A stretch of DNA of 45,169 nt from Patescibacteria group bacterium (GTDB lineage: Bacteria; Patescibacteriota; JABMPQ01; JBFLZX01). Under the pieces are notes generated by a model. That model saw only the letters and a program-made list of their open reading frames with translations, did not search any database and was not told the origin of the DNA. Of this stretch, positions 8,464-42,397 are shown one piece after another. Numbering within the stretch: position 1 is the stretch's first letter; every line of letters begins with the position of its first letter. The stretch spans positions 1 to 45,169 of the forward strand of contig JBFLZX010000006.1 in assembly GCA_040756075.1 (NCBI GenBank), in the 5' to 3' direction. The position numbers and the translations under genes were made by a program.

Positions 8464-8469
8464 AAAATA

Positions 8470-8538
8470 ACTTATCACTTACAACTTATAACTTATCACC
8501 TATAACTTGTAACAGTTATTAGTTGTTAGTTGTCAGTT
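8470..8538. repeat. Inverted degenerate heptamer array (ACTTAYM units / AGTTGTY units), no cargo
   Basis: acttatc acttaca acttata acttatc acctata acttgta, then agttatt agttgtt agttgtc; same unit family as the flanks of 13959..14336. Confidence 0.75.
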
Positions 8539-11500
8539 AATCTTTCAATACCTTGACAAACTCATCGCTTGACAAAAATTTCTGCATTAAAATATCAAAT
8601 GACGAACCGGTTTTATCCCAATATTCAACGCCTTTAACATCTGGCGCTCGGCCATAAAGAGTTTCGTACATTTCCGAGATAGCCGATGACCTGCCAAATT
8701 CTTTCTCAATTTCTTTTAAGCGATTTGTGTATTCTTCGGATTCTGCGAGATGTTTTCGCATATCTTTAGCAAGAGCAAAACTTGCGCCAAAATATTTTGC
8801 TCCGGCTTTATCTGCTCCGCGCTTTAAAACAATTTGATAGGCAAGTTCGGGTTTTGCTTCGGCCGCGCCAATAGCAGAAATTAATTCATCTTGATACTCT
8901 TTTGAAACTGAAAGGGCAAATTTCACGCCAAAAATATCAATCGCGTCTTTTCCTGTGATTTTCGAATCTGTGCGGGAGACCCAATATTCAAGACCTTTTT
9001 GGTCATAAAATTTTCCTAAATCTTCATTATAAATTCGGTCATGAATTACGCGATACAGCATTGAAATTGCTTCTTTAGTCTCTTTTTCCTTTTGCAAAGC
9101 TAAAAGTTTATTGTCAAATTCTTTCATCATTCGATCATTAATCATTGTAAACTTTATCCCCGGCAAAGTTAATGATTCTTTTCCTTCTGGCTTGTAAAAA
9201 AATCCCGGCCCGCCTTTTTCTAAGTCTTTAACTTTTTTGCCGGCAAACTCTGAATCTGGCGTTTCCCATTTTTTAAGATTTGTCTCGTCTTGATTTTTAA
9301 GATAATCTCGATCTAAAACCAAGGTGTAGTAATAGCCGATTGTCTGCATTCTATTTAAAGTCTTAAATATTTTAGGCTCGGTTATCTTATTGGCGACAGA
9401 AACCTGATAGTAATAAGGAAATCTTCCTTTTTCAAAACCCTGATCATTTTTATCTGACCACTCTCCGCCTTTTAAATCACGCAGGACAACATAATATTTT
9501 CCATCATTTTTGTCTTTGTAAACTTTTGCTCCTTTATTTATTGAATTTTTATTTTCGCCGTATTTAAAAGAAATATCTTTTGGGTCTAGATTGTTTTGCG
9601 CGCCTTGGGTAAAATTCCATTTTAAAACTAGCCGCGTCGGACCGCGATGCCAAACAAAAGAACTAATATCCAATGGTTCTTCCGGCTTCGGAGTTGGTTT
9701 TGGCTCGGTGGCAAATGAAATTTCTGCTTCCGATAATACAGGAGTAGAATAAGGCAAAACTACGGCGCTAAAAATCAAAGATGGTGAAGATGACGAAAAC
9801 TGCGTCGGCTGCAAAATTGATGGTCCTATTCCTGGCGAAACTCCTGATGACGGTTGTTTATCAATTACTTGGGCTTTTGCTTGAGAGATTAAATTAAAAT
9901 TAAATGAGGTTGGTGATGAAAAATTTTGTTGATCTTGCAAAGCTGCTTCGATAGAATTAATACTTCTGTTAATTTTATTTAATGTCTCTAATGTACTGCC
10001 ATCTAAGGTTCTTCGCGTTGCAAAATCTTTTTTTAAATTTTGAATCTCGGCGGCCAAATTATCAATTTGCGACTTTTCTAAATCTTTTGCCTCTGCCTGC
10101 TGCAATCGAACTGTCTCTTGTTCTAAAATAGCAATTTTTTGATCAATTGGCGCAGGATCAGTAAAAAATTCACCTGTTTCGCTTTTATCCAAAACTAAGT
10201 TATTTTCGTCGATTATTTTCTTGGTTTGGTTTTTTATTTTTTGGATAATATCTTTGATCTCAGCGGGCGAAATTGGAGTTAAAGTCGGCGCCGATGGAGT
10301 TGGCAAAGGAATAGGAGTTGACAAAGCCGGAGAAGCTGATTCTGTAAAACTGATTTGAGTATAAAATGGAGTTGAACCTGTTTTTATCTTAGTGTTTTGT
10401 TTTTTCATTTCTTGATCTCCATATTTAGAAATCAAATTAAAATCTGATAATGGAGAGTTATTGATTTTTATTTCTTTTTCATCATTTGGCAAAAGGAATA
10501 ATGTCCGCTGAAAGACAAAATTAGCCGCTTTATCAGAAGGAACTTCTTTTTGTAATTCATAAGACTTATCTTTTATAGTTTCTAAATTATTTTTCCATTG
10601 CGTATTTTCCTCTCCCACGCCTGTCTCGCTTTTATTCTGCGCGACGGCAATCATTCTTAAATCTTTTGGCTCAATTTCTTTTTTAAAATTATAAGTAAAA
10701 ATATCTTTTTTTGCTGTGTAATCTTGATTTTCTTTCTTTTCTGGCGGGGTTATTTTTGGATTCTGCCATTCTTCTGCTGTAATCCAGGTTTTGCCGCCAT
10801 CAGGCGACAAATATATTTCCATCTCACCCTTGGCATCTTTGTGATGGAAAGTTTTTACTTCCAATTTCGCCCCAGTAATATAATTTTTTTCTAGAATTTT
10901 GTTTATTTCTTCCTGCAAAATTGGCTGACTTTGGGCTTTTCCAATTAAAAATCCAGTGTCATAAACGCCATATTTATTTTGAGGCTGTCCTGATGGTGAT
11001 TGGCCAGCCGGCTTTTGCGATTTAAAATTTTCAAAATTGTTTTGCGGAATAATTATTTTTATTTCTTGTGACGAGGCGCCATCGCATATTTTTGCTTTAA
11101 GCGATGCGCCGTCAGTAGAAGTTGGCGCGAGCGGAAAAATCTGGCCATTGCGGATAATAAAGTATCGAGGATCATATTGATAGCGAACTTCAATTAATTC
11201 AATTAAATGGTTGCTGACAATTTTTTCAAAAGGAAGGTAAAGCGGCATACCTTCTTTTTTAAGTTTTTCAAGTTCTTGTTTTTGTTCTTGTTCAAAAATA
11301 TTTTCATCAATATTAACACTAATTTTCGTTAAATACGCCTCATATTGCTTTTTTTGTTCTTCACTTAGTTTTGGATCTTGTAGTAGTTCTTCTTCAATAA
11401 TTTTTTTAACCGCCTCTTGCACTTGCATTTGTCTTCCTCCTTCAATAATCTGTTTTGCCATCTCTTCAAAAACTTTTCCTTTTAATAAAATTTTGATTTT

Positions 11501-13344: not shown

Positions 13345-13449
13345 TAATTTTAAATTTTAAATTTTAAATCAATTTTTAAATTATTTAATTTTAAAAATTT
13401 AATCATTAAAAAATTCATTAAAAATTAAAAATTTGACATTTTGAATTTT
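13345..13449. repeat. Inverted AT-rich heptamer array, no cargo
   Basis: aatttta x3, aatc, aattttt..., then the mirror arm attaaaa units. Confidence 0.6.
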
Positions 13450-13865: not shown

Positions 13866-13916
13866 ATTCTATCAAAATAAGAAATATTTGTCAAAACATT
13901 TTTCGAGAGATATAAT
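13866..13916. promoter_or_regulatory. Back-to-back sigma70 promoters with overlapping -35 boxes
   Basis: Plus: TTGTCA(13888)-17-TATAAT(13911); minus: TTGACA(13894)-17-TAGAAT(13871) with extended TGn. Confidence 0.65.
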
Positions 13917-13958
13917 GTAACTAACAACTAACAACTTATAACTAACAACAATTTAAAA

Positions 13959-14336
13959 ATGGATAAATTCCGATTCTTAAAGTGGAAGGTTTATAAAGAT
14001 GCAAAACTTATCTTTTCTTTAGTTTTAAAAATAGTCAGAAAATTACCGAAAGAGTACCGATTTGAATTAGGAAGCCAAATTATTAAATGTTGTCTATCAA
14101 TAATTTTAAATATCGCCGAAGGTTGTGGAAAAACTTCTGATAAAGAACTGAATAGATTTATAAATATTTCCTTGGGATCAATAAATGAGTTACTTGCGGC
14201 AATTGATATTCTAAGGGATAATAAATTTATAACGATTGATGAATTTAATAATATTTACAAAAGACTTGACAGCATTTCTAATCAGTTGGGCGGATTCAAA
14301 AAGAAACTAATAACTTGCAACAGTTGTAAGTTGTAA
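13959..14336 (+). CDS. Four helix bundle protein (23S rRNA IVP / Avd-like family)
   Basis: FRFLKWKVY...LPKEYRFELGSQI...SIILNIAEGCGK..DKELNRFINISLGSINE pattern; flanked by inverted heptamer arms at ~13919-13951 and ~14322-14347. Confidence 0.9.
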   Translation: MDKFRFLKWKVYKDAKLIFSLVLKIVRKLPKEYRFELGSQIIKCCLSIILNIAEGCGKTSDKELNRFINISLGSINELLAAIDILRDNKFITIDEFNNIYKRLDSISNQLGGFKKKLITCNSCKL

Positions 14337-14358
14337 GTTGTAAGTTAATACAAATACT

Positions 14359-14976
14359 ATGAATCCTCTTTCTTGGCAAACAGTGGAAAAATATCTCTCG
14401 GAAAAAACAAAATCAGGCAACATTTTGGCCTTGATTGAGACAGAAAAAATTTTCAAAAAAGTTTTAGAAAAACTGAATTTTCCCGGAAAAACTATTTCCC
14501 AAAAAATAAAAGGCTTAAAATTTGTCCTTTCTGATTATGAAAACTTTTTATCAGCGCAAAAAATATATCAACGAATTATCTCTGATTTAAATTTTGAACC
14601 AGAACAAACAAAAATTGAAGAAATTTTAACCTATTATTATAAAGCAATTGAAGAGATTGTAAATTTTCAAAAAGAAAAACAGAATATTATCTTGATGCTA
14701 AAAATTAAGTCAACGGTATATTTGCCGTCGCAACCCCGTTCTTTTTTGAAAAAATTTATTTTAATTTCAGTTATTTTTTTCTTTATTATTTTTGTTTTAG
14801 ACAACACGCAAATTGGCAGAGCGCTGGTTAATCTCCTGGTAAAAATATCTCATTTTATCTTTAGCTGGATTTTATTTGCTGTTCTTTTGTTATTTGGACT
14901 CGCAATTATCATTATCGGCGCGCTTTTTTACTTTGAAAACCGAAAGAAAACAAAGATAACTAAAATTGAAAATTAA
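14359..14976 (+). CDS. Hypothetical membrane protein with helical N-terminal domain and two C-terminal TM segments
   Basis: 205-aa ORF, hydrophobic C-terminal half. Confidence 0.6.
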   Translation: MNPLSWQTVEKYLSEKTKSGNILALIETEKIFKKVLEKLNFPGKTISQKIKGLKFVLSDYENFLSAQKIYQRIISDLNFEPEQTKIEEILTYYYKAIEEIVNFQKEKQNIILMLKIKSTVYLPSQPRSFLKKFILISVIFFFIIFVLDNTQIGRALVNLLVKISHFIFSWILFAVLLLFGLAIIIIGALFYFENRKKTKITKIEN

Positions 14977-15030
14977 ATTCAAATTTTTAATTACAAATTT
15001 TAAATCAAATTCAAATAAATAAATGAATGA

Positions 15031-15384
15031 ATGAAAAAAACAGCAAAAAAATTTGACCTCGAAGAAAGAACCGCCAAATTCGGCGAAAATATCATTGAAT
15101 TTGTAATGAAATTACCAAAAAATTCAATAAATAATCCTTTAATTAGCCGACTTATTAAGTCTGCAACATCAATTGGCGCAAACTACATGGAAGCTAACGG
15201 CGCCGAATCTAAAAAGGATTTTTTACACAAAATTCATCTTTGTAAAAAAGAATCAAAAGAAACAATGCATTGGCTTAGGATGATTGCTAAAGCTAATCAA
15301 AATTATTCAGAAAATTGTCGTCACTTCTGGCAAGAAGCGAAAGAGTTAACTTTAATTTTTGCAAAAATTTGCCAAACTAAATAA
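15031..15384 (+). CDS. Four helix bundle protein
   Basis: DLEERTAKFG...LIKSATSIGANYMEANGAESKKDFLHKIHLCKKESKETMHWL; flanked by AT-rich heptamer arms. Confidence 0.9.
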   Translation: MKKTAKKFDLEERTAKFGENIIEFVMKLPKNSINNPLISRLIKSATSIGANYMEANGAESKKDFLHKIHLCKKESKETMHWLRMIAKANQNYSENCRHFWQEAKELTLIFAKICQTK

Positions 15385-15429
15385 TGTCTTAGATTTTGAA
15401 TTTAAAAATTCATTAAAAATTTAAAATTA

Positions 15430-18400
15430 ATGTTCACTCACCTCCACGTTCACTCCCACTACTCGCTTTTAGACGGTCTGCCAAAGATTGATGATTTAGT
15501 AATGCGAGCAAAAGAGCTTGGAATGCACTCTCTAGCTTTAACTGATCATGGGGTAATGTACGGACTTGTAGAATTTTATCAAAAGGCAAAAAAAATTGGG
15601 ATTAAACCAATTTTGGGTTGTGAAATTTATTTAGCTCCCTATGGAATGAGTCAAAAAAGAGCGAAAATTGACACAAAACCGTATCATCTAGTTTTACTCT
15701 GCAAAAATAATGAAGGGTATAAAAATTTAATCAAAATTGTCACTGCCGCCCACCTTGCCGGATATTATTACAAACCCAGAGTGGATTTTGAATTTCTAAA
15801 AAATCATGCCCAAGGCCTAATCGCGCTCACCTCTTGTCTTGAAGGAGAAATTCCGCGCCTAGTTCTTTCCGGCAATCTAGAAAAAACAGCAAAACGGGCA
15901 AAAGACTACGAACAAATTTTTGGTAAAGGAAATTTTTATTTAGAAATTCAGCACCATCCTGGCATCGCCGAGCAAAAGATTGCTAACCAAGGAATGATCA
16001 CGATTTCCAAAAAATACAATTTGCCGATTGTTGCAACCTGCGATTCGCATTATTTAATGCCGGCTGATGCCGAAATTCAAGATATTCTACTCTGTGTCCA
16101 GACACAAAAAAAAGTGGCGGAAAAAAATCGTATTTCAATGCTTGACGATGATTTTTCTTTACGAACACCGAAAGAAATGGCAGAAATTTTCAAAGAGACG
16201 CCGGAGGCGATTGCCAATACCGAAAAAATCGCAAAAATGTGCAATCTGGAATTAGAGTTTGGAAAAATAAAACTTCCAAAATTTGAAGTACCGAAACCCT
16301 ATAATCCTGATACTTATCTTAAAGAATTAGCTTATCACGGATTAACAAAAAAATATGGAATTGAAATTCACAAGAACACAAAAACACAAAAACAAGAAAA
16401 CAAATTAACCGCTGAAATTTTAAAACGCTTGGAATATGAATTGGCGGTAATTGAAAAAACCGGCTTTGCTTCATATCTCTTAATTGTCCAGGATTTTGTC
16501 AACTGGGCGAAGGAAAATAAAATCGTTGTTGGGCCTGGCCGTGGTTCTGCCGCAGGTTCCCTTGTTTGCTACCTTTTGAATATAACTGAAATTGATCCGA
16601 TTAAATATGATTTATTATTTGAAAGATTCTTAAATCCGGAGCGAATTTCAATGCCCGATATCGATTTAGACTTTGCTGACACTCGCCGCGATGAAGTAAT
16701 TGAATATGTAAAAAATAAATACGGCAAAGATCACGTTGCCCGAATTATTACTTTTGGAAAAATGGCAGCTAGAGCGGCAGTTCGCGATGTTGTCCGTGTT
16801 TTGGGTTATCCTTATAGTTTTGGCGACCAAATCGCAAAATTGATTCCTATGTTTATGACTATTTCTGAAACTTGCGATAAAGTTTATGAATTAAAAGATT
16901 TATACCAAAAAGATCCCGACGCAAAAAAAATCCTTGAATATGCAAAAAAACTAGAAGGCGTAGCCAGACATGCTTCTGTCCATGCTTGCGGCGTGGTTAT
17001 TACTCCAGAACCTCTTGATAACTATATTCCAAGACAATTTGCTTCTCAAGACGACAAGACAGTTATCACTCAATATGAAATGCATGGAATTGAAGATCTT
17101 GGTCTTTTAAAAATGGATTTTCTTGGACTCAAAAATTTAACTATTATCCAAAATACTATTAAAATTATTGAAAAAATTCATAATATAAAAAATGAGATTG
17201 ATAAAATTCCGCTTGACAATAAAAAAACTTTTGAACTTTTGCAAAAAGGAAATACAACAGGTGTGTTTCAACTGGAATCAGCGGGGATGAAACGTTATTT
17301 AAAGCAATTAAAACCAACAGAATTTGAAAATATTATCGCGATGATTTCTTTATATCGGCCAGGACCAATAGAATGGATCCCGGAATATATTTTAAGAAAA
17401 CAAGGGGAAAAAGATATAACCTATATTCATCCAAAATTAAAAAGAGCTTTGGAAAAAACTTATGGAATTTGCGTCTATCAGGAACAGTTAATGCAGATTG
17501 CCCAAGATGTGGCGGGCTTTACTTTAGCAGAAGCAGATGTCTTGCGTAAAGCAGTTGGCAAAAAAATCAAACATTTACTTTTAGAACAAAAGAAAAAATT
17601 TATCCAAGGCGCGATGGCAAATAATATTCCAGAAAGCATTGCCCAAGAAATATTTTCTTTTATTGAACCTTTTGCTGGCTATGGTTTTAATAAAGCCCAC
17701 GGAACATGTTACGCAATGATTGCTTATCAAACTGCTTATTTAAAAGCCCACTATCCGGCAGAATTTATGGCTGCTCTGCTCACTTCTGACCAAGAAGATA
17801 TTGACCGCATTGCAATTGAAATTCAAGAGTGTAAAGAAATGGGACTTGAGGTTTTGCCACCTGATGTTAATGAAAGTTTTACGAATTTTGCGGTAGTAAA
17901 AAAAGACGGAAAACCAGTTATCCGCTTCGGCCTTAATGGAATTAAAAATTTAGGTCATGATATCGCCAGCCAAATTGTTGAAGAAAGAAAACAAAACGGA
18001 AAATTCAAAAACTTTGACGATTTTATTCAGCGACTTGCCAGTCCAAAATTCAACAAAAAATTTCTCGAAAGTCTGGCAAAATCAGGAGCTTTAGATTCCC
18101 TTGCCGAAAGAAATCAAATTTTACAAAATACAGAAAAAATATTAAACTATTCAAAGAACATCCAAAAAACAAAATCAAAAGGTCAAGTTGATTTATTTGG
18201 CAATTTAAACAGCTCGGCCTCTCTTCAACTCCGTTTAGATGAAGCTCCGCCTGCTTCTAAAAATGAAAGGCTTTCCTGGGAACGAGAGCTTTTAGGCCTT
18301 TATGTCTCTGAACATCCTCTGGCGGAATTAAAAGACTATTTTGATCAAAAAACAACAAACTGCCGCCAATTAAAATCAAAACGAGGAAACGAAAAAGTTA

Positions 18401-18924
18401 TTTTGGGCGGAGTAATAAACAAAATAAAAAAGATTCTTACCCGAAATTCACAGACAATGCTTTTTGTTAAAATTGAAGACCTTGCTGGAGAGGCAGAAAT
18501 TATAGTTTTCCCAAAAGTGTTGTCCAAAAACCCAATTATTTTCCAAGAAGATAAAATTATTTTAGTAGAAGGAAGAACTTCGGATAAAAACCAGGAAATC
18601 AAGGTTCTTTGCGACAATGCCCGGGAACTAACTAAAGAAATAGTTGACGGATGGCGAAAAACAAAAAATCCAAAAAACAGTTCTATTCTTAAACTAACAA
18701 TTCCGCAAAACGCTACGCCAGATCTGCTCTATAAATTAAAAAATATTTTTGAAGCTAATCCTGGTCCTTGCGAAATTATTTTAAATATTCCCGACGGCAC
18801 AAACAGCTTTAAAACTATAAAGGCAAAAACTAAAACCGATACTAATAAAACTGTTTTAGAAAAAGTCAAAAGCTTTGTTGGAAGAGAGAATGTAAAAATA
18901 ATAAATCCAAATATCAAAGCCTAA
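15430..18924 (+). CDS. dnaE: DNA polymerase III alpha subunit
   Basis: PHP motifs FTHLHVHSHYSLLDG and TDHG; GPGRGSAAGS; FERFLNPER; MPDIDLDF; KMDFLGL; C-terminal OB fold. Confidence 0.98.
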   Translation: MFTHLHVHSHYSLLDGLPKIDDLVMRAKELGMHSLALTDHGVMYGLVEFYQKAKKIGIKPILGCEIYLAPYGMSQKRAKIDTKPYHLVLLCKNNEGYKNLIKIVTAAHLAGYYYKPRVDFEFLKNHAQGLIALTSCLEGEIPRLVLSGNLEKTAKRAKDYEQIFGKGNFYLEIQHHPGIAEQKIANQGMITISKKYNLPIVATCDSHYLMPADAEIQDILLCVQTQKKVAEKNRISMLDDDFSLRTPKEMAEIFKETPEAIANTEKIAKMCNLELEFGKIKLPKFEVPKPYNPDTYLKELAYHGLTKKYGIEIHKNTKTQKQENKLTAEILKRLEYELAVIEKTGFASYLLIVQDFVNWAKENKIVVGPGRGSAAGSLVCYLLNITEIDPIKYDLLFERFLNPERISMPDIDLDFADTRRDEVIEYVKNKYGKDHVARIITFGKMAARAAVRDVVRVLGYPYSFGDQIAKLIPMFMTISETCDKVYELKDLYQKDPDAKKILEYAKKLEGVARHASVHACGVVITPEPLDNYIPRQFASQDDKTVITQYEMHGIEDLGLLKMDFLGLKNLTIIQNTIKIIEKIHNIKNEIDKIPLDNKKTFELLQKGNTTGVFQLESAGMKRYLKQLKPTEFENIIAMISLYRPGPIEWIPEYILRKQGEKDITYIHPKLKRALEKTYGICVYQEQLMQIAQDVAGFTLAEADVLRKAVGKKIKHLLLEQKKKFIQGAMANNIPESIAQEIFSFIEPFAGYGFNKAHGTCYAMIAYQTAYLKAHYPAEFMAALLTSDQEDIDRIAIEIQECKEMGLEVLPPDVNESFTNFAVVKKDGKPVIRFGLNGIKNLGHDIASQIVEERKQNGKFKNFDDFIQRLASPKFNKKFLESLAKSGALDSLAERNQILQNTEKILNYSKNIQKTKSKGQVDLFGNLNSSASLQLRLDEAPPASKNERLSWERELLGLYVSEHPLAELKDYFDQKTTNCRQLKSKRGNEKVILGGVINKIKKILTRNSQTMLFVKIEDLAGEAEIIVFPKVLSKNPIIFQEDKIILVEGRTSDKNQEIKVLCDNARELTKEIVDGWRKTKNPKNSSILKLTIPQNATPDLLYKLKNIFEANPGPCEIILNIPDGTNSFKTIKAKTKTDTNKTVLEKVKSFVGRENVKIINPNIKA

Positions 18925-19008
18925 ATGTCAAATGAATGTCAAATGACTAAATAACAAATTGTAGATTTTGTCATTTGGGTTTCATTTGTTATTTGGATTT
19001 TGGATTTT
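18903..19008. repeat. Inverted heptamer array overlapping the dnaE stop; left arm near-identical to 32418-32459
   Basis: CAAATAT CAAAGCC TAAATGT CAAATGAATGT CAAAT..., mirror arm TTTGTCA TTTGGGT...TTTGGAT. Confidence 0.8.
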
Positions 19009-19015
19009 CGAAGTT

Positions 19016-20155
19016 ATGTACCAAAGACTCGATTCTCAAAAATCATATCGCGGTATTTTTATTTTCTTCGTCCTTATTACCTTAGCCTTGATTATCTTTG
19101 TCTTATACACCTCTTTTTCTCAAGCAATTATCACCCTCACGCCAAAAAAGGACAAAGTTTCTGTTGACTTCGGAATAAAAATTGAAAAAAACGAAAAGCT
19201 CGACCAAGAACCAAAAATTCTAGCTGGTCGCGTCTTGCAGACACAGGAGACCGCCGAAGAAAAAATTACTGACATCCCAAAAATAAAAACTGGCGACAGG
19301 GCTCACGGCAAAGTCACAATTTATAACCAAAACGAAGAGGCAATGGGCATTGTCGCCAAAACCCAACTTAGACATGAAACAACCGGACAGATTTTTAGAA
19401 CTGACCAAGCAATTAACATTCCTCCTCGCGGAAAAGTAGAAGTGGAAGTTACAGCTGATCAGCCGGGAACAAACGGAGAAGTAGAGCCGGACAATTTTCG
19501 ATTAATAAAACTATCTCCGGAATGGCAAAAAATTATTTATGGCGAATCCAAAGAAAAATTTAAAATTATTCAAAAAGAAGTAAAAATCGCAACTGCCGAA
19601 TTTATGGAAAAAGAAAAACAAAAAATTGTTGAGAATTTAGAAGACACGGCGAGGACAAAACTTGAAGACAAACTTTCCGGCTCTGAAAAAATTCCCAAAA
19701 AAGCAATTAAATATGAAATTTTAGAATCTAAAGCTTCAGTTGAACCAGAAACAGAAACAGAAGAATTTACTATTTTTATCAGAGTAAAAATTACCGCCTT
19801 GGTTTTTAATGAAGATATTCTCTTTAATATCGCTCAAGAAAAAATAAAAGAGAAAACAACTAGTGAGCAAGAATTTTTGAAATCTGATAAAGAAAGTATA
19901 AAATATGAAATTTTAAATTACGATTTAAATAGTCAAAAAACTACCGTCAAAGTTCATCTCGAAGGCGAAGTTCAATCTAAACTAAACGCCGAGGAAATTG
20001 ACCGTGAAAAACTGCTTGGCCGCAAAGATGAAGAAGTAAAAATGTATTTCAATAGTGACCCGAAAGTTGAAAATGTTGAAGTTTTATTTTCGCCTTTTTG
20101 GGTAAATCGAGTGCCGACGCTAAAAGACCATATTGAGATAGTAGTTAAAAAATAA
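19016..20155 (+). CDS. Membrane-anchored protein with baseplate J/gp47-like domain
   Basis: N-terminal TM; AHGKVTIYN...T.L...TGQIFRT...VEVTADQPGTNG pattern; C-terminal SPFWVNRVP; ATG at 19016 (the upstream extension is repeat-derived). Confidence 0.6.
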   Translation: MYQRLDSQKSYRGIFIFFVLITLALIIFVLYTSFSQAIITLTPKKDKVSVDFGIKIEKNEKLDQEPKILAGRVLQTQETAEEKITDIPKIKTGDRAHGKVTIYNQNEEAMGIVAKTQLRHETTGQIFRTDQAINIPPRGKVEVEVTADQPGTNGEVEPDNFRLIKLSPEWQKIIYGESKEKFKIIQKEVKIATAEFMEKEKQKIVENLEDTARTKLEDKLSGSEKIPKKAIKYEILESKASVEPETETEEFTIFIRVKITALVFNEDILFNIAQEKIKEKTTSEQEFLKSDKESIKYEILNYDLNSQKTTVKVHLEGEVQSKLNAEEIDREKLLGRKDEEVKMYFNSDPKVENVEVLFSPFWVNRVPTLKDHIEIVVKK

Positions 20156-20157
20156 CA

Positions 20158-20275
20158 AAAATTCCAATGACCAAATTCCAATGTTCAATCAAATCTCAAA
20201 TCATAAATTCCAAACAAGTTTGAGATTTGGAATTTGGAATTTGATTGGTCATTGAGATTTGGAATTTGGAAATTC
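20158..20275. repeat. Inverted heptamer array, no cargo
   Basis: aaattcc aatgacc aaattcc aatgttc aatc aaatctc..., mirror tttgaga tttggaa tttggaa... Confidence 0.85.
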
Positions 20276-20291
20276 TATTTTAATAAAATAT

Positions 20292-22055
20292 ATGCCTTCA
20301 AAAAAATCTAAATCAATTGATATTCTCCGCCACTCTTGCTCCCATGTTCTCGCTCAGGCAGTCTGGCAAATGTTCCCCGAAGCCAAACTCGGAATAGGGC
20401 CAACCATTGAAAATGGTTTTTATTATGATTTTTTATTGCCGCGGACTTTAACTCCCGAAGATTTAAAAATCTTGGAAGATAAAATGCGGCAAATTATTAA
20501 ACAAAACGCCGCCTTTGAAAAAAAAGTTGTGCCTATCGAACGAGCTTTAGAGTTTTACAGCAAAAAATGGGATCAGCCATTTAAACGCGAATTAACTGAA
20601 GATTTAAAAAAACAAGGGGCGCGGGCAGTAATAGTTTATCAAGATGGAAAATTTATTGATCTCTGCCGCGGCCCGCATCTAGATTCTACTGGCGAAATTA
20701 CACCTTCAGCTTTTAAATTAACTCGCATTGCTGGCGCTTATTGGAAAGGAAGTGAAAAAAGACCGATGATGCAAAGAATATATGGTATTGCTTTTGCCTC
20801 GGAAAAAGAGTTAAAAGATTACTTACAATTACAAGAAAAAATAAAACAATACGATCATCGCGAAACAAATAAAGCGCAAAAATTGTTCGGAATTTACGAG
20901 CAAGTTGGCGGCGGGCTTATTTTATGGCATCCAAAAGGAGCAATTGTGCGCCAAATTATTGAAAATTTTTGGCGCGAGGAACATTTGCGTCGCGGCTATC
21001 AATATGTTTATACCCCGCATATTGGACAACTCGGACTTTGGAAAAAATCCGGACATTTTTCTTTTTACCGGGAAAATATGTATTCGCCAATTAAAATTGA
21101 TAAAGTTGAGTATATGTTAAAACCAATGAATTGTCCTTTTCATGTCCAAATTTACAAATCAGAAATGCGCTCTTACCGCGATTTGCCAATAAGATTTTGC
21201 GAGCTCGGAACTGTTTATCGCTATGAACGAGCTGGAACTTTACATGGTTTGCTTCGCGTTCGCGGTTTTACTCAAGACGATGCTCATATTTTCTGCGCAT
21301 CTTTGCAAGTAGAAAAAGAGGTTAGCGATGTTCTTGATTTTGCAATTTTTATGCTTAAAAGTTTTGGTTTTAAAAAATTTGAAATTGACTTGTCATTGCG
21401 GGATCCTAAGAATAAACAAAAATATCTAGGAAATGAGACAGTTTGGCAAAAAGCCGAAGGAGCACTAGAAACAGCATTAAAAAAGAAAAAATTAAAATAT
21501 AAAAAGACTTTGGGCGAAGCAGTTTTTTATGGGCCAAAGATTGATTTAAAATTAATTGATTCTTTGGGCCGCGGCTGGCAAGGACCGACAGTGCAAATTG
21601 ATTTTAATTTTCCGGAAAAATTTGATTTAAATTATATAAATGAAAAAGGTCAAAAAGAAAAAGTGGTAATGATTCATCGCACAGTTTTAGGATCTATGGA
21701 AAGATTTTTTGGCTCACTCTTAGAACATACAGGCGGAGCTCTGCCAACCTGGCTTGCGCCTGTGCAATGTATTTTTATCCCAGTCTCTGATAAATTTGAA
21801 AAGAAAATTGGTGTGATTGTAGAAAAAATTAAAAAAGAAGGCCTGCGCATAGAAATAGATTTGCGCAATGAATCAGTTGGCAAAAAAATCTCCGACGCAA
21901 TAAAACAAAAAATCCCTTATATGATTGTGATGGGAGAGAAAGAAATAAAATCAAAGAAATTGGCAGTTCGCGAGCGTGGCGGCAAAAAAGTCCAAAAGAT
22001 TGCGCTAGCGACGTTTGTGAAGAAATTGAAAAAGGAAATTCAAAGTAGAAGCTAG
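20292..22055 (+). CDS. thrS: Threonine--tRNA ligase (short form lacking the N-terminal TGS domain)
   Basis: RHSCSHVLAQA, DLCRGPH, KPMNCPFH, GLLRVRGFTQDDAH, FYGPKID, HRTVLGSMERF; ATG at 20292 is the likely start. Confidence 0.97.
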   Translation: MPSKKSKSIDILRHSCSHVLAQAVWQMFPEAKLGIGPTIENGFYYDFLLPRTLTPEDLKILEDKMRQIIKQNAAFEKKVVPIERALEFYSKKWDQPFKRELTEDLKKQGARAVIVYQDGKFIDLCRGPHLDSTGEITPSAFKLTRIAGAYWKGSEKRPMMQRIYGIAFASEKELKDYLQLQEKIKQYDHRETNKAQKLFGIYEQVGGGLILWHPKGAIVRQIIENFWREEHLRRGYQYVYTPHIGQLGLWKKSGHFSFYRENMYSPIKIDKVEYMLKPMNCPFHVQIYKSEMRSYRDLPIRFCELGTVYRYERAGTLHGLLRVRGFTQDDAHIFCASLQVEKEVSDVLDFAIFMLKSFGFKKFEIDLSLRDPKNKQKYLGNETVWQKAEGALETALKKKKLKYKKTLGEAVFYGPKIDLKLIDSLGRGWQGPTVQIDFNFPEKFDLNYINEKGQKEKVVMIHRTVLGSMERFFGSLLEHTGGALPTWLAPVQCIFIPVSDKFEKKIGVIVEKIKKEGLRIEIDLRNESVGKKISDAIKQKIPYMIVMGEKEIKSKKLAVRERGGKKVQKIALATFVKKLKKEIQSRS

Positions 22056-22264
22056 AAACTCGAATCTCGCAACTTGAATCGAATATTAAATTTAAGAAAA
22101 TTGAAATTAGTTTTTGGAAAATAGAAAATAGTAATGGAAATTGGAAAATCGAAAATGGTAACTAATTTCTAATTTCCATTTTCTATTACAAATTTCCAAT
22201 TTCTAACAACCAATTTCCAATTTCATAATTCCATTCAAGATTCCAGTTGCCAGTTGCGAGATTC
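22056..22264. repeat. Two nested inverted repeat arrays between convergent genes
   Basis: Outer arms GAATCTCGCAAC.../...GTTGCGAGATTC; inner GAAAATW heptamers mirrored by AATTTCY heptamers. Confidence 0.75.
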
Positions 22265-23639
22265 ATTTTTTACTTGCTTTTATCAGTCTCTTTGCATATT
22301 TCACATCTGGATAAATAAATTCAAGTTTTGCCAAACCAGCTCGCACAAGTTCTTCATTTATAAAAGTTCCGTCAGAAAAAACATAAGCTAAATATCGACC
22401 AAAAGGGTCAATTTTTTGTTTATCGTACTCTATTGTCACTTCTTTACCATAAATTAATTCTTTGTTTTTATTTGTTGCTTCCAAATAAAACGGCTCGCCA
22501 ATTTCCGGCGTGTCTATTCCAATATAACGAATTTCTTGGCCCGAATCTAAGAAAATAGTATCGCCGTCATCAACATAAATTACTTTGGCGCGGACTTTTG
22601 TTTTCGAAGAAAAAACATCAATGCCGCTTATATTTTGCAGAGTATAAATAGTTTTCCAAATTGAGACCTCATGATTAATTTTATAAACACTTATTCTGCC
22701 GCCATATCCTTCGCCAATTAATACTTCTGCCCTGCCATCGTCATCAACATCTTTTAATTTCAAATAAATTTCATTATTTGATATCAAATTATTTGGCCAC
22801 GCAATATTTTGATAATTAAATTTTGAAATTTGACATTGGCCATTGCTTAAAAAACTGCAAATTCCAAATTCCGATTTTCCATCGCCTTCTAAATCGCCGG
22901 CAGAAATGTTAAAATCTCTATAATTTGAAATATCAATTGACGCAGGATATATTTTTTTGTTTTTATAAATAAATATTTTTGATAAACCGCTGCTTGAAAA
23001 AATAATCTCATCTTTACGGTCGCGATCAATATCTCCGGAAGTAATTTTTATTCCACCTCGGTAATTTTTGGAAAAAGGAATGAATTTATCTAGAAGTTTT
23101 CCTTTGTAATTGAAAATTTTTATATAAGGCGGAGTAGAAACAATAATTTCTGACTTGCCGTCATTATTTAAATCGCCTAAAGTAATGTCGTTCCAAGTGC
23201 TAGCGAGGAATTCCCTTGATAAGCCGTGGGATTCCTCGCCCCGATTAACATCGGGGCTCGGAATGACATCATATTTCAGTGCGCCATTTTTAGAAAATAT
23301 TGCAATCCGCGACATCCCATATTTTGACACCACCACAATTTCATTTTCAAAATCGTAATCAACATCGCCGACTGCAAAATTTATCGGAACTTGCATATTT
23401 TCTGGCAAAAAAAATGAAGAAACAATATTGCCTTGTAAATCATAAAAAATTATTTGCCCCAAATTCGTTGAAACAACAATTTTTTTTTCTTGAGCCGCTA
23501 AAGAAAAACTCGGCAATAAAAATAGCCAAAATAAAAAAATAACCCCAGAAATTATTAACTTTGAGTTTTGAGCTTTAGTTTTGAGTTTTGAGCTTTGAGC
23601 TTTGAGCTTTAACTTTGTTTTTAAACAAAACATAATCAA
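22263..23639 (-). CDS. Secreted FG-GAP-repeat protein fused to a C-terminal thermonuclease (SNase) domain; start uncertain
   Basis: Repeats GDVDYDFENEI, GDLNNDGKSEI, GDIDRDRKDEI, GDLEGDGKSE; SNase motifs VDDGDTI, IRYIGIDTPE, D.FGRYLAYV, NEELVRAGLA; the N-terminus includes a heptamer arm (23558-23612). Confidence 0.85.
   Translation of the reverse strand: MIMFCLKTKLKLKAQSSKLKTKAQNSKLIISGVIFLFWLFLLPSFSLAAQEKKIVVSTNLGQIIFYDLQGNIVSSFFLPENMQVPINFAVGDVDYDFENEIVVVSKYGMSRIAIFSKNGALKYDVIPSPDVNRGEESHGLSREFLASTWNDITLGDLNNDGKSEIIVSTPPYIKIFNYKGKLLDKFIPFSKNYRGGIKITSGDIDRDRKDEIIFSSSGLSKIFIYKNKKIYPASIDISNYRDFNISAGDLEGDGKSEFGICSFLSNGQCQISKFNYQNIAWPNNLISNNEIYLKLKDVDDDGRAEVLIGEGYGGRISVYKINHEVSIWKTIYTLQNISGIDVFSSKTKVRAKVIYVDDGDTIFLDSGQEIRYIGIDTPEIGEPFYLEATNKNKELIYGKEVTIEYDKQKIDPFGRYLAYVFSDGTFINEELVRAGLAKLEFIYPDVKYAKRLIKASKK
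23186..23268 (-). repeat. REP-like palindromic element read in-frame inside the nuclease gene
   Basis: Minus strand TGTCATTCCGAG-CCCCGATGTTAATCGGGG-CGAGGAATCCC...GGGAATTCCTCG...TTGGAACGACA matches the intergenic elements at 24400 and 45082. Confidence 0.85.
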
Positions 23640-23648
23640 TGCCTAAAA

Positions 23649-24359
23649 CTATTTCGGCAATAATTTACCGCTGCCAGCCGGATTATACCCATGCTCTACC
23701 TCTTCGCCATCTTTATATCCATCGCCATCAGTATCCGAATTTTGAGGATCGGTTTGATATTGATATTCTTCCAAATTATTCAGGCCATCCTCATCAGGAT
23801 CAGAAAGGGCGTCAACATAATCTAAAGGGTTTAACTTGTATTTTACTTCAAAACCATCAGGTAATCCATCAAAATCTGTATCTTTTTCTTTGGGATTGGT
23901 GCCGTATTGCAGTTCCTGCGAATTTGAAAGTCCATCGCCATCTTCATCAATATTCCCAAAATCAGATTCTTTTGTTTCGGTTATAACTTCTTTTTTTGCC
24001 TGGTTTTTTTTGAAAAATATGCCTCTTTGCCAAAACTGCCATACACCATAAGATAAAGCCAAAATCACAACAATCAATAAAAGTAAAATATTTTTTCTAT
24101 TTTTTGGCACTCTGCCCGCACCTTCAAGATAGTGTTTTTTTTCTTCTTTCTGTGGTTCTTGTTTAACAAATTTTGGAAGATGAATTTCCTCTTCGCCAAA
24201 AGAAGGCAGAACCTCTCGCTTTGATTTAGATCTATCGTTTTCAAAATCTACTTCCTCCGACAAAAAATCTTCGTTTTTGCTTGGCCTAAAACTTCCTTCT
24301 CCTGCTTTTGGTAAATTTGCCGGCGGATTAGATTTAGATTCTTGAGTACGAAAATCCAT
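23649..24359 (-). CDS. Single-pass membrane protein with DxDxDG (thrombospondin type-3-like) Ca-binding repeats
   Basis: TM LLLLIVVILALSYGVW; DEDGDGL, DTDFDGL, DPDEDGL, DTDGDGYKDGEEVEHGYNP. Confidence 0.8.
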   Translation of the reverse strand: MDFRTQESKSNPPANLPKAGEGSFRPSKNEDFLSEEVDFENDRSKSKREVLPSFGEEEIHLPKFVKQEPQKEEKKHYLEGAGRVPKNRKNILLLLIVVILALSYGVWQFWQRGIFFKKNQAKKEVITETKESDFGNIDEDGDGLSNSQELQYGTNPKEKDTDFDGLPDGFEVKYKLNPLDYVDALSDPDEDGLNNLEEYQYQTDPQNSDTDGDGYKDGEEVEHGYNPAGSGKLLPK

Positions 24360-24399
24360 AAAAAATTAAAAATGACAATGTTAAAATTGACACAGAATG

Positions 24400-24515
24400 T
24401 GTCATTCCGAGCGAGGAGCGGAGCGACGAGTCGAGGAATCTCGCAGCTTGTCTGCGAACTCGCATTCGCGAGAGATCCCTCGCTACGCTCGGGATGACTC
24501 CGATGCATCGGAGTC
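24400..24515. repeat. Complete REP-like element plus a 20-bp perfect palindrome, located between heptamer arms
   Basis: TGTCATTCCGAG...CGAGGAATCTC / GAGATCCCTCG...CTCGGGATGAC; GACTCCGATGCATCGGAGTC at 24496-24515; heptamer arms at ~24362-24393 and ~24528-24567. Confidence 0.85.
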
Positions 24516-24562
24516 AATCTTAATATCTGAATTGTCATTTTTTATTTTACATTTTAAATTTT

Positions 24563-25510
24563 TCATTTTACAACAAGTTTCCCCATCATTCCTTTTCCTT
24601 TATCTTCAATTGTATTAGAGTAATAAATGTATTCCCCGGTTTTTTGCGGCGTAAATTCTATTGTTGCTTTTTCGCCCGCCTTAATTGTCTGATTAATATC
24701 CAATTCATCAATTGTAAAAGTATGATCTGCATCTTGACTTGTGATTTCCAGCGTTGCTTTTTCTCCTGTTTTTACTTCAAATTGAGCAGGGTCAAAGATG
24801 TAATTTTTAGCAATAATTGTTATTATTTTTTGCTCTTCTGAAACTGCTGTCTTTTCTAGCTTGCCAGAACCCAAGGGATTATAGCCATTATCAATTTCTA
24901 CTTTATCTAGATACTTATCTCCGTCAGTGTCTTTAAGATTAGGATTTGTATTATAAGTAACCACTTCATCATAATCTGATAATCCATCGTTATCAGTATC
25001 GGTTAATTTTAAAATCATCTCTAGCTGTTTAATTGATTCTGTATCCGCTGGCGCGGCTTGCGTCTGTGATATTTTATTTATTTTATCTTCCAGGGAATTA
25101 ATTTTTTCTGCTTCTGCTTTTTTTAAATCGGCCAATTCTTTTTCCAAATTCTCTAATTTCGTCTTTTGTGTTTCAAGTTCTTGAGGACTTAATTGTGTTG
25201 CTTGACTCAATTCAGAAATTTTGGCTTTGAGTGAATTTGTTTGTAAATACAAAATACCTAGAGCAATAAAAAGTCCAAGAATTAATAAAAAAACAAAAAT
25301 AAAACCTAATATTAAGCCTATATGGCTTGGTTTTTTGGGTAATGATTGGGGCGCAGATGGAGACGGAGATTTTGAAGAAAGCGACCTCATTTCTTTTGTT
25401 TCTGATGACTCCAAATTTCCGCTTAATTCTGATTCAGCGATTTTTTGTTTAATTAATTCTCTTGGCGGAATCCTCCGCGGCAAATTTTCTGGCGGGGCAA
25501 TGTCGATCAT
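24563..25510 (-). CDS. Membrane protein with coiled coil, DxDxDG repeats and a C-terminal cupredoxin-like domain
   Basis: TM; DTDNDGLSDYDE, DTDGDKYLD; F.P..F.VKTGE...DADHTF...F.P.KTGEY.YY...GMMGKLVV. Confidence 0.75.
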   Translation of the reverse strand: MIDIAPPENLPRRIPPRELIKQKIAESELSGNLESSETKEMRSLSSKSPSPSAPQSLPKKPSHIGLILGFIFVFLLILGLFIALGILYLQTNSLKAKISELSQATQLSPQELETQKTKLENLEKELADLKKAEAEKINSLEDKINKISQTQAAPADTESIKQLEMILKLTDTDNDGLSDYDEVVTYNTNPNLKDTDGDKYLDKVEIDNGYNPLGSGKLEKTAVSEEQKIITIIAKNYIFDPAQFEVKTGEKATLEITSQDADHTFTIDELDINQTIKAGEKATIEFTPQKTGEYIYYSNTIEDKGKGMMGKLVVK

Positions 25511-25568
25511 AATTAATTTAAGATTTAAGATTGATAATTGATGATTTAAAAAATTTGGGATTTTAGAT

Positions 25569-25928
25569 TTAAGATTTATTATTTTTAGATGCTGATTTTC
25601 TTGAAACTACCATAATTGATATAATTTCATTAGTTTCTTTTAATAGTGGTTCTACTAATTCCTTTTTCAGTAATCTACTTTCTATAACAATTTCAAGCCA
25701 AAATGCACTTTCATCAGCCTCTTCAATCACAACGCCAAGTTTCGCTATAAATTCTGTTTTTGATCTTGCACGGCAAGCGGCATAATAATTTGCTCCTACT
25801 GATGTTCCGCTTCTCATTAACTGATTGCCTATTATACGGCCCTCAACTGTATTCGGTAAGGCTCTTACTAATTTTATTATCCGCAATACATATTGCTTTG
25901 TTCTTTTTCGCAAATCATTTTTATTCAT
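25569..25928 (-). CDS. Four helix bundle protein
   Basis: DLRKRTK...QLMRSGTSVGANYYAACRARSKTEFIAKLGVVIEEADESAFWLE; inverted heptamer arms at ~25935-25969 and ~25515-25577. Confidence 0.9.
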   Translation of the reverse strand: MNKNDLRKRTKQYVLRIIKLVRALPNTVEGRIIGNQLMRSGTSVGANYYAACRARSKTEFIAKLGVVIEEADESAFWLEIVIESRLLKKELVEPLLKETNEIISIMVVSRKSASKNNKS

Positions 25929-25975
25929 AATTCATAAAATCTACAATCTGCAATCATCAATCTACAATTATTTAT

Positions 25976-26004
25976 AGTATAACATATTCTTAACTAAAAA
26001 TCAA
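25976..26004 (-). promoter_or_regulatory. Sigma70-type promoter upstream of the four helix bundle gene
   Basis: Minus strand TTGATT-17-TATACT with extended TGn. Confidence 0.5.
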
Positions 26005-29979: not shown

Positions 29980-30201
29980 ATTATTCTAATTATTCTAATT
30001 GCTTTAATTATTCTAATCAAATCCTAATAACCAATTTTAGAAATCCCAAATCACAAATCCCAAATTACAAATAAATTCAAAATTCAAATTTTCAAATGAC
30101 AAAAAATTGTTTTGGATTTTGGTCATTGGTGCTTATTTGGAATTTGGTGCTTGTAATTTGGAATTTGACTATTCAACATTTATTAAGTTAATTAGGTTAA
30201 T
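29980..30201. repeat. Heptamer inverted array nested inside a 9-mer inverted array within the por operon
   Basis: AATTATTCT-like x4 ... ATTAAGTTA/ATTAGGTTA outside; AAATCMC units / TTTGGWD units inside (~30041-30167). Confidence 0.75.
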
Positions 30202-32409: not shown

Positions 32410-32535
32410 AAAATCTAAAATCCAAATATCAAAGCCCAAATGCCAAATGAATGTCAAATACTTAAATGTCAAATAAAAAATTTGTCATTAGGATTTTGGA
32501 TTTGATTTGACATTTGAAATTTGGATTTTGACATT
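32410..32535. repeat. Inverted heptamer array, no cargo
   Basis: Left arm 40/42 identical to 18903-18944; mirror arm TTTGTCA...TTTGACA TTTGAAA TTTGGAT TTTGACA. Confidence 0.8.
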
Positions 32536-34676: not shown

Positions 34677-34797
34677 ACAAAAACTCAGAACTCAAAACGC
34701 AAAGTGCAAAACCAAAATGTAAAATTTAAAACTTTTAAGTAATAATTTTTAAGTTTTTAATTTTGGTTTTTCGCTTTTAGTTTTGCACTTTGAGCTT
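34677..34797. repeat. Inverted heptamer array, no cargo
   Basis: AAAACTC AGAACTC AAAACGC AAAGTGC..., mirror ...GTTTTGCACTTTGAGC. Confidence 0.75.
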
Positions 34798-37095: not shown

Positions 37096-37205
37096 TTTTT
37101 AATTTCTAATTTCTAATGAATTTTTAATGACTTAATTTTAAATATTGTTTAAAAATTAATTCATTAAAAAATTGATTGAAAATTGAAAATTTGAAATTTA
37201 AAATT
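37088..37205. repeat. Inverted AT-rich heptamer array, no cargo
   Basis: aattttc aattttt aatttct aatttct aatg aattttt..., mirror attgaaa units. Confidence 0.7.
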
Positions 37206-42017: not shown

Positions 42018-42113
42018 AATTTTCAATTTTAAATTTTCAATTTTCAATAAATTTTCAATGATTAAATTTTTAATTATTTAAACATTTATAAATTTAAAAT
42101 TCATTTAAAATTT
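42018..42113. repeat. Inverted AT-rich heptamer array between gatC and gatA
   Basis: aattttc aatttta aattttc aattttc aata aattttc aatgatt..., mirror atttaaa units. Confidence 0.7.
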
Positions 42114-42397
42114 CATTCGAGGACTGCCTTTACTTTCCAAAAATTTCCTTCTCTTTTTGGCGCCTGAGATAATATTTTTTCACTTCCTTTAAACTTTTTA
42201 ACTTTATCTTGCCGGCCAGAATTGACGACACCAATAATATGGTGGGTTGGCGCTATATCTTGAGTATTCACCTCCTTTAGCTCTCCAACATAATCTAAAA
42301 TTTTAACCAACTGCTTGGTGTAAAGTTCTTTTTCTTCTTCAGAAATTTTTATTCTTGCTAATTTGGCGATATGTTCAACTTCAGATTTGGTAATCAT
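42113..42397 (-). CDS. gatC: Asp/Glu-tRNA amidotransferase subunit C
   Basis: ITKSEVEHIAKLARI...ILDYVGELKEVNT...AP; upstream of gatA. Confidence 0.93.
   Translation of the reverse strand: MITKSEVEHIAKLARIKISEEEKELYTKQLVKILDYVGELKEVNTQDIAPTHHIIGVVNSGRQDKVKKFKGSEKILSQAPKREGNFWKVKAVLE

Follow-up and report, generated by a model that had tools for sequence, protein, structure and literature searches.

The intervening sequences (IVSs) of bacterial 23S rRNA are classically inserted at helix 25 or helix 45 of the molecule. The IVS of Coxiella contains an open reading frame (ORF) for the S23p protein, it is closed by a 28-bp stem of terminal inverted repeats, whose cleavage by RNase III has been observed in vitro, and it carries two to three tandem GACAGAT heptamers, whose number varies between strains; according to the discussion of the same work, it is unclear where 23S rRNA IVSs come from and what they do (PMC4990558). 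The homology of the S23p/four-helix proteins to Avd, the accessory protein of diversity-generating retroelements (DGRs), has been noted (PMC10053308), and intergenic tandem units of 7 nt, often located just upstream of start codons, have been repeatedly described without a cause (PMC4679880, PMC4692102). Here, we have analysed a stretch of 45,169 nucleotides from a Patescibacteria group bacterium (GenBank assembly GCA_040756075.1, contig JBFLZX010000006.1), which we refer to as the window or as contig C6, i.e. one contig of a genome of 1.49 Mb (113 contigs, ~33% G+C, completeness 97.8%, estimated contamination 4.9%). In this window, three genes for small four-helix-bundle proteins, FH1, FH2 and FH3, are each enclosed by inverted arrays of tandem heptamers, the “arms”. 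The comparison of these loci within the genome and with other genomes shows that the arms and the gene form one unit, a cassette, of which copies arise within genomes, pass between lineages, and appear at or disappear from intergenic junctions; the cassette is probably a mobile, selfish DNA element without a recognisable transposase.

Judging by their sequences, the products of FH1 (13959..14336, plus strand, 125 aa), FH2 (15031..15384, plus strand, 117 aa) and FH3 (25569..25928, minus strand, 119 aa) belong to a family of small (~110–130 aa) four-helix-bundle proteins: they match the profile PF05635 (23S_rRNA_IVP) with E-values of 3e-26, 5e-14 and 6e-16 and with 92, 52.7 and 58.9 bits, respectively (cut-off 33.8), and the profile TIGR02436 (“four helix bundle protein”) with 91.7, 70.6 and 84.4 bits (cut-off 24). 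Relatives in the Protein Data Bank (PDB) have been found by sequence search for FH1 (PDB ID:2GSC, E 4.5e-8) and for FH2 (PDB ID:2RLD, E 4.6e-11). The three genes are mutually divergent, as an initial annotation of the window had stated, with pairwise BLASTP identities of 0–32%; the FH2 protein is 78% identical to a copy on another contig (C11:16023-16367). The same annotation had described the genes as co-oriented with the surrounding genes, which holds for FH2 and FH3, where both neighbours have the same orientation, but not for FH1, whose upstream neighbour is divergent.

Each of the genes was found to be bracketed by inverted arms of its own heptamer, in agreement with the initial annotation; the paired stretches have a length of 24–26 nt and a complementarity of 79–88%, and Tandem Repeats Finder (TRF) reports period-7 arrays at 6/6 arms. 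The 5' arm of FH1 is an AACTAAC-type array (13918..13949, plus strand; TRF period 7, 4.4 copies), and its 3' arm is an AGTTGTA array (14322..14347, plus strand; TRF 3.6 copies, 100% matches) that covers the last 15 nt of the ORF; the inverted pair 13918-13943 / 14322-14347 extends over 26 nt and is 88% complementary. The 5' arm of FH2 consists of AT-rich heptamers (14967..15016, plus strand; inverted repeat, TRF period 7), and the 3' arm (15389..15436, plus strand) reaches the start codon (15430) of the gene of DNA polymerase III alpha; two inverted pairs are formed here, one of 25 nt with 88% complementarity (14967-14991 / 15412-15436) and another with 80% (14987-15011 / 15406-15430). The 5' arm of FH3, on the minus strand, is of the GATTGTA type on the strand of the gene (25938..25975; TRF 25938-25968), and its 3' arm, an ATTTAAG-type array when read on the plus strand (25516..25578; TRF period 7, 8.7 copies), overlaps the end of the ORF; the inverted pair 25523-25546 / 25945-25968 extends over 24 nt with 79% complementarity.

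Two of the genes follow directly after a predicted promoter, as had been noted before: a sigma-70-like site TTGTCA-17-TATAAT (13888..13916, plus strand, 11/12 consensus) ends 2 nt before the 5' arm of FH1, and a weaker promoter-like site TTGATT-17-TATACT with a TG, typical of an extended −10 element (25976..26004, minus strand, 9/12 consensus), abuts the 5' arm of FH3, with a terminator-like hairpin (26058-26028) located upstream of it; both sites are consensus matches only, the totals of promoter-like sites not being above those of shuffled sequences in either scan. The pairing of the arms into a stem that loops out the gene, also proposed in the initial annotation, is predicted by the minimum-energy RNA folds of 3/3 cassettes; with z-scores of −2.15, −2.43 and −0.36 relative to shuffled sequences, only the first two folds beat the shuffles. 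Contigs assembled from two public DNA runs (share 0.07 each) contain only relatives with ~88% identity, including one apparently filled FH2 site. In one such contig, the region of the 3' arm of FH2 is longer by one 7-nt unit (TAAATTG, at 15411); this is a weak hint of variation in the number of units, and it may originate from another copy of the repeat family in another organism.

In order to compare the four-helix genes with the other genes of the genome, the complementarity of the 60-nt flanks of each ORF has been scored (1606 ORFs, crude ORF calls, threshold of at least 24). The genome contains 17 matches to PF05635 at 16 loci, and 12/16 of these loci reach the threshold. For comparison, a 95th percentile of 23 was obtained with the other ORFs (n = 1498), and of 21 with random pairs of flanks (n = 1500); the possibility that four-helix genes are flanked by such arms no more often than other genes, of which ~5% score as high, is therefore not borne out. 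The four low scorers are broken genes with wrong ORF bounds, and once the bounds were corrected, inverted heptamer arms were seen by eye in 4/4, so that the arms occur at 16/16 loci (12 by score and 4 by eye). Broken copies account for 4–5 of the 16 loci, and 14/16 loci are co-oriented with both of their neighbours (in the background, a fraction of 0.78 of adjacent gene pairs share a strand). Among genomes of the same order, 18/26 four-helix loci score at least 24. A filter for split arms, based on the self-complementarity of single flanks, was discarded, as the self-scores were inflated. On contig C11 (16023-18419), the successive co-oriented genes of one operon-like cluster are interspersed with three four-helix cassettes, of which one is broken.

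That the whole unit moves is indicated by the limits of homology between its copies. The alignment of the FH2 cassette with its paralogue on C11 is confined to the stretch between the outer ends of the two arms, the flanks being unrelated; a stretch of 38 nt of the FH2 5' arm is identical in the paralogous cassette, though the coding DNA has diverged. Three further cassettes of the genome (C52a, C15 and C8b, 70–74% identity) are likewise aligned only between their outer arm ends. Filled and empty alleles have been compared in a sister genus (g2; species G001, G008 and G012), since the relatives of the organism (genomes of 0.7–1.4 Mb) are distant, the nearest belonging only to the same order, with DnaE identities of up to 66%. 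Such alleles, for which the initial annotation had proposed to look, exist: 3/3 tested G001 cassettes are missing from the orthologous junction of at least one congener (G008, G012). At locus 1, G001 has the arms and the gene (~480–510 nt), and the corresponding junction measures 70 nt in G008 and 30 nt in G012, with no heptamer arm in either. At locus 2, G008 has a short ORF-less array of related units and G012 a different insert of 416 nt without a four-helix gene, and at locus 3, G008 and G012 have an ORF-less hairpin of 136 and 156 nt, respectively, of a different heptamer family. From these loci it follows that the arms arrive with the gene, and that the junctions are reused by different elements. 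The distribution of PF05635 is patchy, with matches in 19/31 relatives and in 157/301 sampled genomes of the phylum, a tally that includes the unpublished genome G162.

The heptamer type follows the protein clade across species. The closest relatives of one of the four-helix proteins of the genome occur mostly in metagenome-assembled genomes (MAGs) of the candidate phyla radiation (CPR)/Patescibacteria. A search with three close proteins has yielded 80 loci of a single protein clade at 60–72% identity, from many CPR lineages and from MAGs with the unverified labels Gammaproteobacteria or Bdellovibrionales; 45 of the 77 evaluable loci score at least 24, compared to 41 of the 468 other ORFs in those loci, though the 77 loci are related by descent and the 45 are not independent events. 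The arms of the clade belong nearly all to one heptamer family (GTATTAT, GTAGTAT, GAATTAT, GAATCAT), which is shared by the C11 copy, and their self-match is 0.75 at a lag of 7 versus 0.23 at other lags. Among 123 cassettes, cross-genome pairs with proteins that are at least 55% identical have 1.15 exact 7-mers in common in their 5' flanks, while pairs below 40% have 0.49, and 0/300 permutations reach the observed association of protein identity with 7-mer sharing. With homology ending at the outer arm ends, the three cassettes absent from congeners, and protein clade linked with heptamer, the earlier proposal of a transposase-less mobile cassette has gained support.

The same architecture extends beyond this phylum. 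A tblastn search against plasmids has yielded 34 records, mostly from Nostoc and Calothrix, plus Riemerella and Azospirillum, and inverted heptamer arms were seen in 10 of the 12 plasmid loci that were fetched, these ten being from Calothrix, Nostoc, Stanieria, Picosynechococcus, Geminocystis, Anabaena, Riemerella and Azospirillum. The arm units are GGGTGTA in Calothrix, TAGGGAG in Nostoc edaphicum, CAGGAGT in N. punctiforme, GGTTTAA in Riemerella and CAGAGGA/CGGATGA in Azospirillum, and five other loci have inverted arms as well; Pseudanabaena has direct arrays (AAAAGCT x12 and AAAAGCC x10), and the four-helix locus of Nostoc 7120 has unlike arrays. Several of the plasmid four-helix genes are located between operon genes of the same orientation (cas6-cas4 and cmr2-cmr3). 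The gene-strand 5' arm is G-rich in 9/12 plasmid loci, often with GGAG-like motifs, and the 3' arm is C-rich in 11/12. As a general rule, a G-versus-C bias of the 5' arm was rejected: it was found in 73/77 loci of the clade and in 9/12 plasmid loci, but in 9 versus 6 of the 16 loci here.

Heptamer arrays without a gene are far more numerous than the cassettes. Across the genome, TRF has found 939 arrays of period 7, the periods 6 and 8 accounting for 137 and 364 arrays, respectively, and 596 of 984 merged period-7 arrays are mostly intergenic, intergenic DNA being only 12% of the genome. Among 996 intergenic regions of 30–400 nt, 309 contain a hairpin at or above the threshold of 28, versus 12 after shuffling; the median length is 34 nt for the hairpin arms (up to ~100 nt) and 12 nt for the loops, and the self-match is 0.50 at a lag of 7 versus ~0.3 at other lags. 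The arms of 11/16 four-helix cassettes have ORF-less relatives (BLAST, at least 24 nt at 80% identity or more); none were found for FH1 and FH3 at this threshold. The hairpins also nest, a conserved module of the GAAAATA type with the loop ATTGTAACTAA occurring within different outer arms at no fewer than eight loci. Since the loops are either short or gene-sized, with few of intermediate length, and since few four-helix remnants occur in the genome, most hairpins are not decayed cassettes. Of the origins that the initial annotation had offered for the empty hairpins, simple target sites or excision scars are not upheld, as the empty alleles of locus 1 have no arms and those of locus 3 belong to another family, while the dispersed and nested hairpins do have the look of non-autonomous derivatives.

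Such ORF-less hairpins, without an assigned strand, are also located in the window. The hairpin at 13346..13440 (score 52, loop of 3 nt) fills an intergenic region and is a BLAST neighbour of the 3' arm of FH2, and that at 37088..37204 (score 57) belongs to the FH2/C11a arm family as a neighbour of the 3' arm of C11a; both are akin to the FH2 type, as had been claimed. A third site that the initial annotation had assigned to this arm family is an AT-rich hairpin at 42040..42111 (score 33; TRF 42018-42117), and the site that it had matched to FH1, at 8470-8538, is a weaker hairpin of ATAACTT/AGTTATT units (8467..8539 by TRF; score 24 at 8479-8536), which resembles the FH1 arms by its unit only. 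The nested hairpin at 22056..22269 (score 73) has outer arms of the GAATCTCG type and the inner GAAAATA-type module with the loop ATGGTAACTAA. The remaining hairpins occur at 34681..34797 (score 48), at 32411..32536 (score 35; CAAATGN type, in one family with the 5' arm of FH5_C3, the broken copy on C3), at 30041..30166 (score 38; AAATCCC/AAATCAC type, by eye the same type of unit as in the 23S inserts mentioned below) and at 20159..20260 (score 34). Gene pairs of a nucleotidyltransferase with a HEPN protein (MNT-HEPN and HepT type, resembling toxin-antitoxin pairs) adjoin ORF-less hairpins at 7549-8279 and at 12223-13062 (minus strand). A reading of the locus as a defence system was rejected, with zero matches to PADLOC families.

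Heptamer hairpins also occur within the 23S rRNA gene of the genome itself (C36:6038-11560, minus strand), which has a length of 5523 nt against the 2925 positions of the model. They follow the E. coli positions 131, 227, 268, 1355, 1623 and 2135, and a further one between 1105 and 1175, i.e. in the helix-45 region, brings the total to at least seven; the first of the inserts are located at helix apices, within the printed part of the Rfam alignment. One insert is, by eye, of the ATGGTTC type that flanks the four-helix gene on contig C26, which ties the intergenic hairpins to the classical IVSs. The 23S gene also holds inserts of 704 nt after position 1951 and of 356 nt after position 2451, and its helix-25 region (~530–760) contains a hairpin that is not of the heptamer kind; these are probably introns or other types of IVS.

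The number of four-helix genes is associated with the density of the arrays. In 24 related genomes, the PF05635 count and the density of period-7 arrays have a Spearman correlation of 0.71 (p 1e-4), a value that is phylogenetically uncorrected, confounded with G+C content (rho −0.54) and based on 20–60 kb per genome, with some of the sampled stretches containing four-helix loci; the density is 0–1.9 arrays/10 kb in the nine genomes without a four-helix gene and 0.8–9.3 arrays/10 kb in the nine genomes with five or more. When the four-helix genes are replaced in this test by Y1 transposases, rho is 0.48, and it is 0.37 with PDDEXK_3 genes. The latter (PF13366, “GxxExxY”, TIGR04256) are a second small cargo in the same kind of arms: a blind scan of the flanks has also yielded two of them, and 4/4 copies in the genome have inverted arms by eye (TGCGAAT, CACTAAT or CTCGAAT), 3/4 also by score, with the arms of the copy on contig C8 having ORF-less relatives. 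In the relatives, the arms of PDDEXK_3 genes are weaker (4/11 score at least 24), and several of these genes have a long 5' array and just a 10–12-nt inverted match past the stop codon; PDDEXK_3 is confined to genomes with four-helix genes (9/9).

Taken together, these findings lead us to consider the four-helix loci as IVS-type mobile cassettes without a transposase, with the hairpins as non-autonomous derivatives, a reading that we hold to be somewhat on the probable side. Each of the three cassettes is a unit of ~430–480 bp, composed of a 5' heptamer array, a single four-helix-bundle ORF and an inverted 3' heptamer array. The insertions are intergenic, and in most of them the cassette either has the orientation of the operon around it or directly follows a predicted promoter, so that its transcription together with genes of the host is probable. 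According to prediction, the arms can form an imperfect stem of 25–45 bp with the ORF looped out; RNase III would cut this stem, as in rRNA IVSs, and the insert would be excised or processed from the transcripts of the host. Since RNase III cuts the stems of IVSs and its gene is present in this genome, such processing is likely to keep the insertion harmless. The hundreds of ORF-less hairpins, both intergenic and in the 23S gene, would be non-autonomous relatives, similar to miniature inverted-repeat transposable elements (MITEs), and the four-helix protein, as a relative of Avd, which binds nucleic acids, would be the best candidate for the recognition of its own heptamer.

Several observations weigh against this reading. 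The cassette contains no enzyme of movement, the four-helix gene being its sole ORF, and a search of the genome, at its completeness of 97.8%, gave no RVT_1 reverse transcriptase; the genome has five genes for Y1 transposases (IS200/IS605-like or RAYT-like), which are candidates for acting on hairpins. The junctions of locus 1 have A-runs at both sides, where no clear target-site duplication can be defined, and the filled and empty alleles come from the sister genus and not from the three loci of the window. To the limits of the correlation with array density is added that it is not significant in the 13 Y1-free genomes (rho 0.45, p 0.12). As for the RNA, the fold of the third cassette is no better than those of shuffled sequences, and some cassettes have direct arrays, i.e. 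~4/26 loci in the order (by eye), 4/77 loci of the clade with a direct score of at least 24, and Pseudanabaena; the stem is thus not obligatory. A wobble bias (sense G-U versus antisense) is absent in the four-helix arms (29 vs 37) and in 253 hairpins of tandem intergenic regions (353 vs 386, p 0.24), where transversions dominate, the complementarity has no gradient from apex to base that would point to growth at one end (0.74, 0.72 and 0.74 in 117 hairpins), and the interior identity of the arms of long hairpins is only ~73%. Given the lack of a wobble bias, the low interior identity and the direct arrays, the complementarity looks like one inherited as DNA rather than kept for the pairing of RNA.

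The same points bear on the alternatives, of which a non-mobile signal for RNA processing, where the arms would be RNase III sites that release the mRNA of an ordinary host gene from an operon transcript, has in its favour the pairing of the arms in the predicted folds, the encoded RNase III and the precedent of the IVSs; we regard it as very unlikely in view of the missing compensatory or wobble pattern, the imperfect arms, the filled and empty alleles, and the occurrence of 60–72%-identical cassettes in unrelated lineages. A regulatory network, in which the four-helix proteins would be heptamer-specific, RNA- or DNA-binding regulators, autoregulated through arrays that act as operator or leader sites, would agree with the position of the repeats on the 5' side of genes, as convergent spacers contain arrays less often (17%) than tandem or divergent spacers do (39%), and hairpins likewise (20% vs 28–36%); it would also agree with the many divergent paralogues, each with its own heptamer, and with the four-helix count that tracks array density, and a post-transcriptional network has been proposed for the TAACTGA heptamers upstream of start codons in Beggiatoaceae (PMC4679880). 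We nevertheless find this alternative unlikely, as the whole unit is present or absent between congeners with homology blocks that stop at the arm ends, copies are broken and patchily distributed, and hairpins are nested and inserted in 23S rRNA; the regulatory and the mobile readings do not exclude each other, as the protein of an element may bind its own repeats.

An equally improbable alternative is that the hairpins are made or moved by Y1 transposases, or by replication slippage with palindrome repair, and that the four-helix and GxxExxY genes are passengers whose survival is best within the loops of hairpins. Two unrelated cargo families do occur in the same kind of arms, the Y1 count is weakly correlated with array density, as given above, and heptamer repeats, which are over-represented in many bacteria, have been ascribed to polymerase slippage (PMC4692102). 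The five Y1 genes, identified by profile match (C7:33129-33563, C17:13451-13852, C25:5812-6237, C1:1856-2554 and C11:30723-31337, one of them with an internal TAG), are flanked, however, by their own short, GC-richer, non-heptamer hairpins, with no heptamer hairpin within 1 kb, and genome G023 has 6.8 arrays/10 kb and 11 four-helix genes with zero Y1 matches; an insertion of passengers into pre-existing local hairpins is further disfavoured because the arms come with the gene at locus 1 and the heptamer follows the protein clade. The notion that the genes encode Avd accessory proteins of a DGR is hardly credible: the fold superfamily is the same and FH1 has weak matches to Avd models (bAvd PF22296, 33.4 bits; NF033474, 32 bits), but these scores are under the cut-offs of 40 and 80 bits, no retroelement-like gene is located beside the four-helix genes, and the 97.8%-complete genome gave no match to RVT_1, so that an identity with Avd was rejected.

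Other sequences with flanking repeats have been seen outside the window. Two PaaX/Cas2-like genes (PF20803; C5:17533-18066 and C13:25632-26180) have a near-perfect, GC-containing, non-heptamer palindrome on both sides and may represent another family of small cassettes, and a small nucleoside 2-deoxyribosyltransferase-like gene (C45:156-533) lies between two inverted copies of a 26-nt sequence resembling a repeat of the CRISPR type. The largest contig, C1 (109,970 bases), has 0.8 period-7 arrays/10 kb and zero heptamer hairpins, versus 4–17 arrays/10 kb on most of the remaining contigs, and its DNA may have been mis-binned or acquired recently.

With regard to known systems, the cassettes share with MITEs, and with REPINs and their RAYT transposases, the dispersed families of intergenic hairpins that outnumber a few protein-coding “master” copies with the same repeat in their flanks. 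They differ from them in their protein, which is a four-helix bundle or a small protein of the PD-(D/E)XK fold and not an HUH/Y1 transposase, and in their arms, which are tandem heptamer arrays and not one fixed palindrome; an identity with REPIN/RAYT systems was rejected, as the flanking hairpins of all five Y1_Tnp genes are non-heptamer ones. The heptamer repeats of Beggiatoaceae (TAACTGA), of Xanthomonas and Nostoc (GGGNATC) and of cyanobacteria (STRR), which have also been described for Calothrix, are likewise tandem intergenic units of 7 nt, and the four-helix arms on Nostoc and Calothrix plasmids are G-rich heptamers of broadly this kind; small dispersed repeats within heptamer arrays of Nostoc are said to have been described by Elhai et al. 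2008. Inverted arrays that are paired around a gene are not part of the published descriptions of such repeats, and in a term search of two works neither S23 nor IVS nor four-helix genes came up (PMC4679880, PMC4692102). In openly readable full texts, we have not found PF05635/S23p genes outside rRNA linked to heptamer arrays or to mobility, and the non-rRNA four-helix genes as heptamer-armed cassettes that are gained and lost are apparently undescribed in that literature.

The closest of the known systems are the 23S IVSs of Leptospira and Coxiella, which have in common with the cassettes the protein family, the terminal inverted repeats that enclose the ORF and the terminal tandem heptamers; the 23S gene of this very genome, with its ORF-less heptamer hairpins, one of them in the helix-45 region, adds to the likeness. 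The three cassettes of the window differ from IVSs in being located between protein genes on C6, away from the 23S gene on C36 and from the rRNA location by which IVSs are defined. Besides Patescibacteria, the cassette architecture occurs in Cyanobacteriota, Bacteroidota and Alphaproteobacteria, and the published Coxiella IVS has a matching layout. Should this architecture prove to be general, 23S IVSs and heptamer repeats would be facets of one family of mobile elements, whose only protein is a small four-helix bundle related to Avd. A widespread “hypothetical” family (the 157/301 genomes of the phylum) would then have a testable function, mobile DNA without any recognisable transposase would form a class of its own, and the long hairpins in up to a third of the intergenic regions of some tiny genomes would be explained. 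We tentatively extend the mobile reading, at chances well below even, to a common origin of IVSs, intergenic heptamer repeats (STRR, Beggiatoaceae and others) and CPR hairpins, in which four-helix proteins would be the heptamer-specific trans factor of pan-bacterial, transposase-less hairpin elements, each clade propagating its own 7-mer, with GxxExxY as a second, possibly nucleolytic, cargo.

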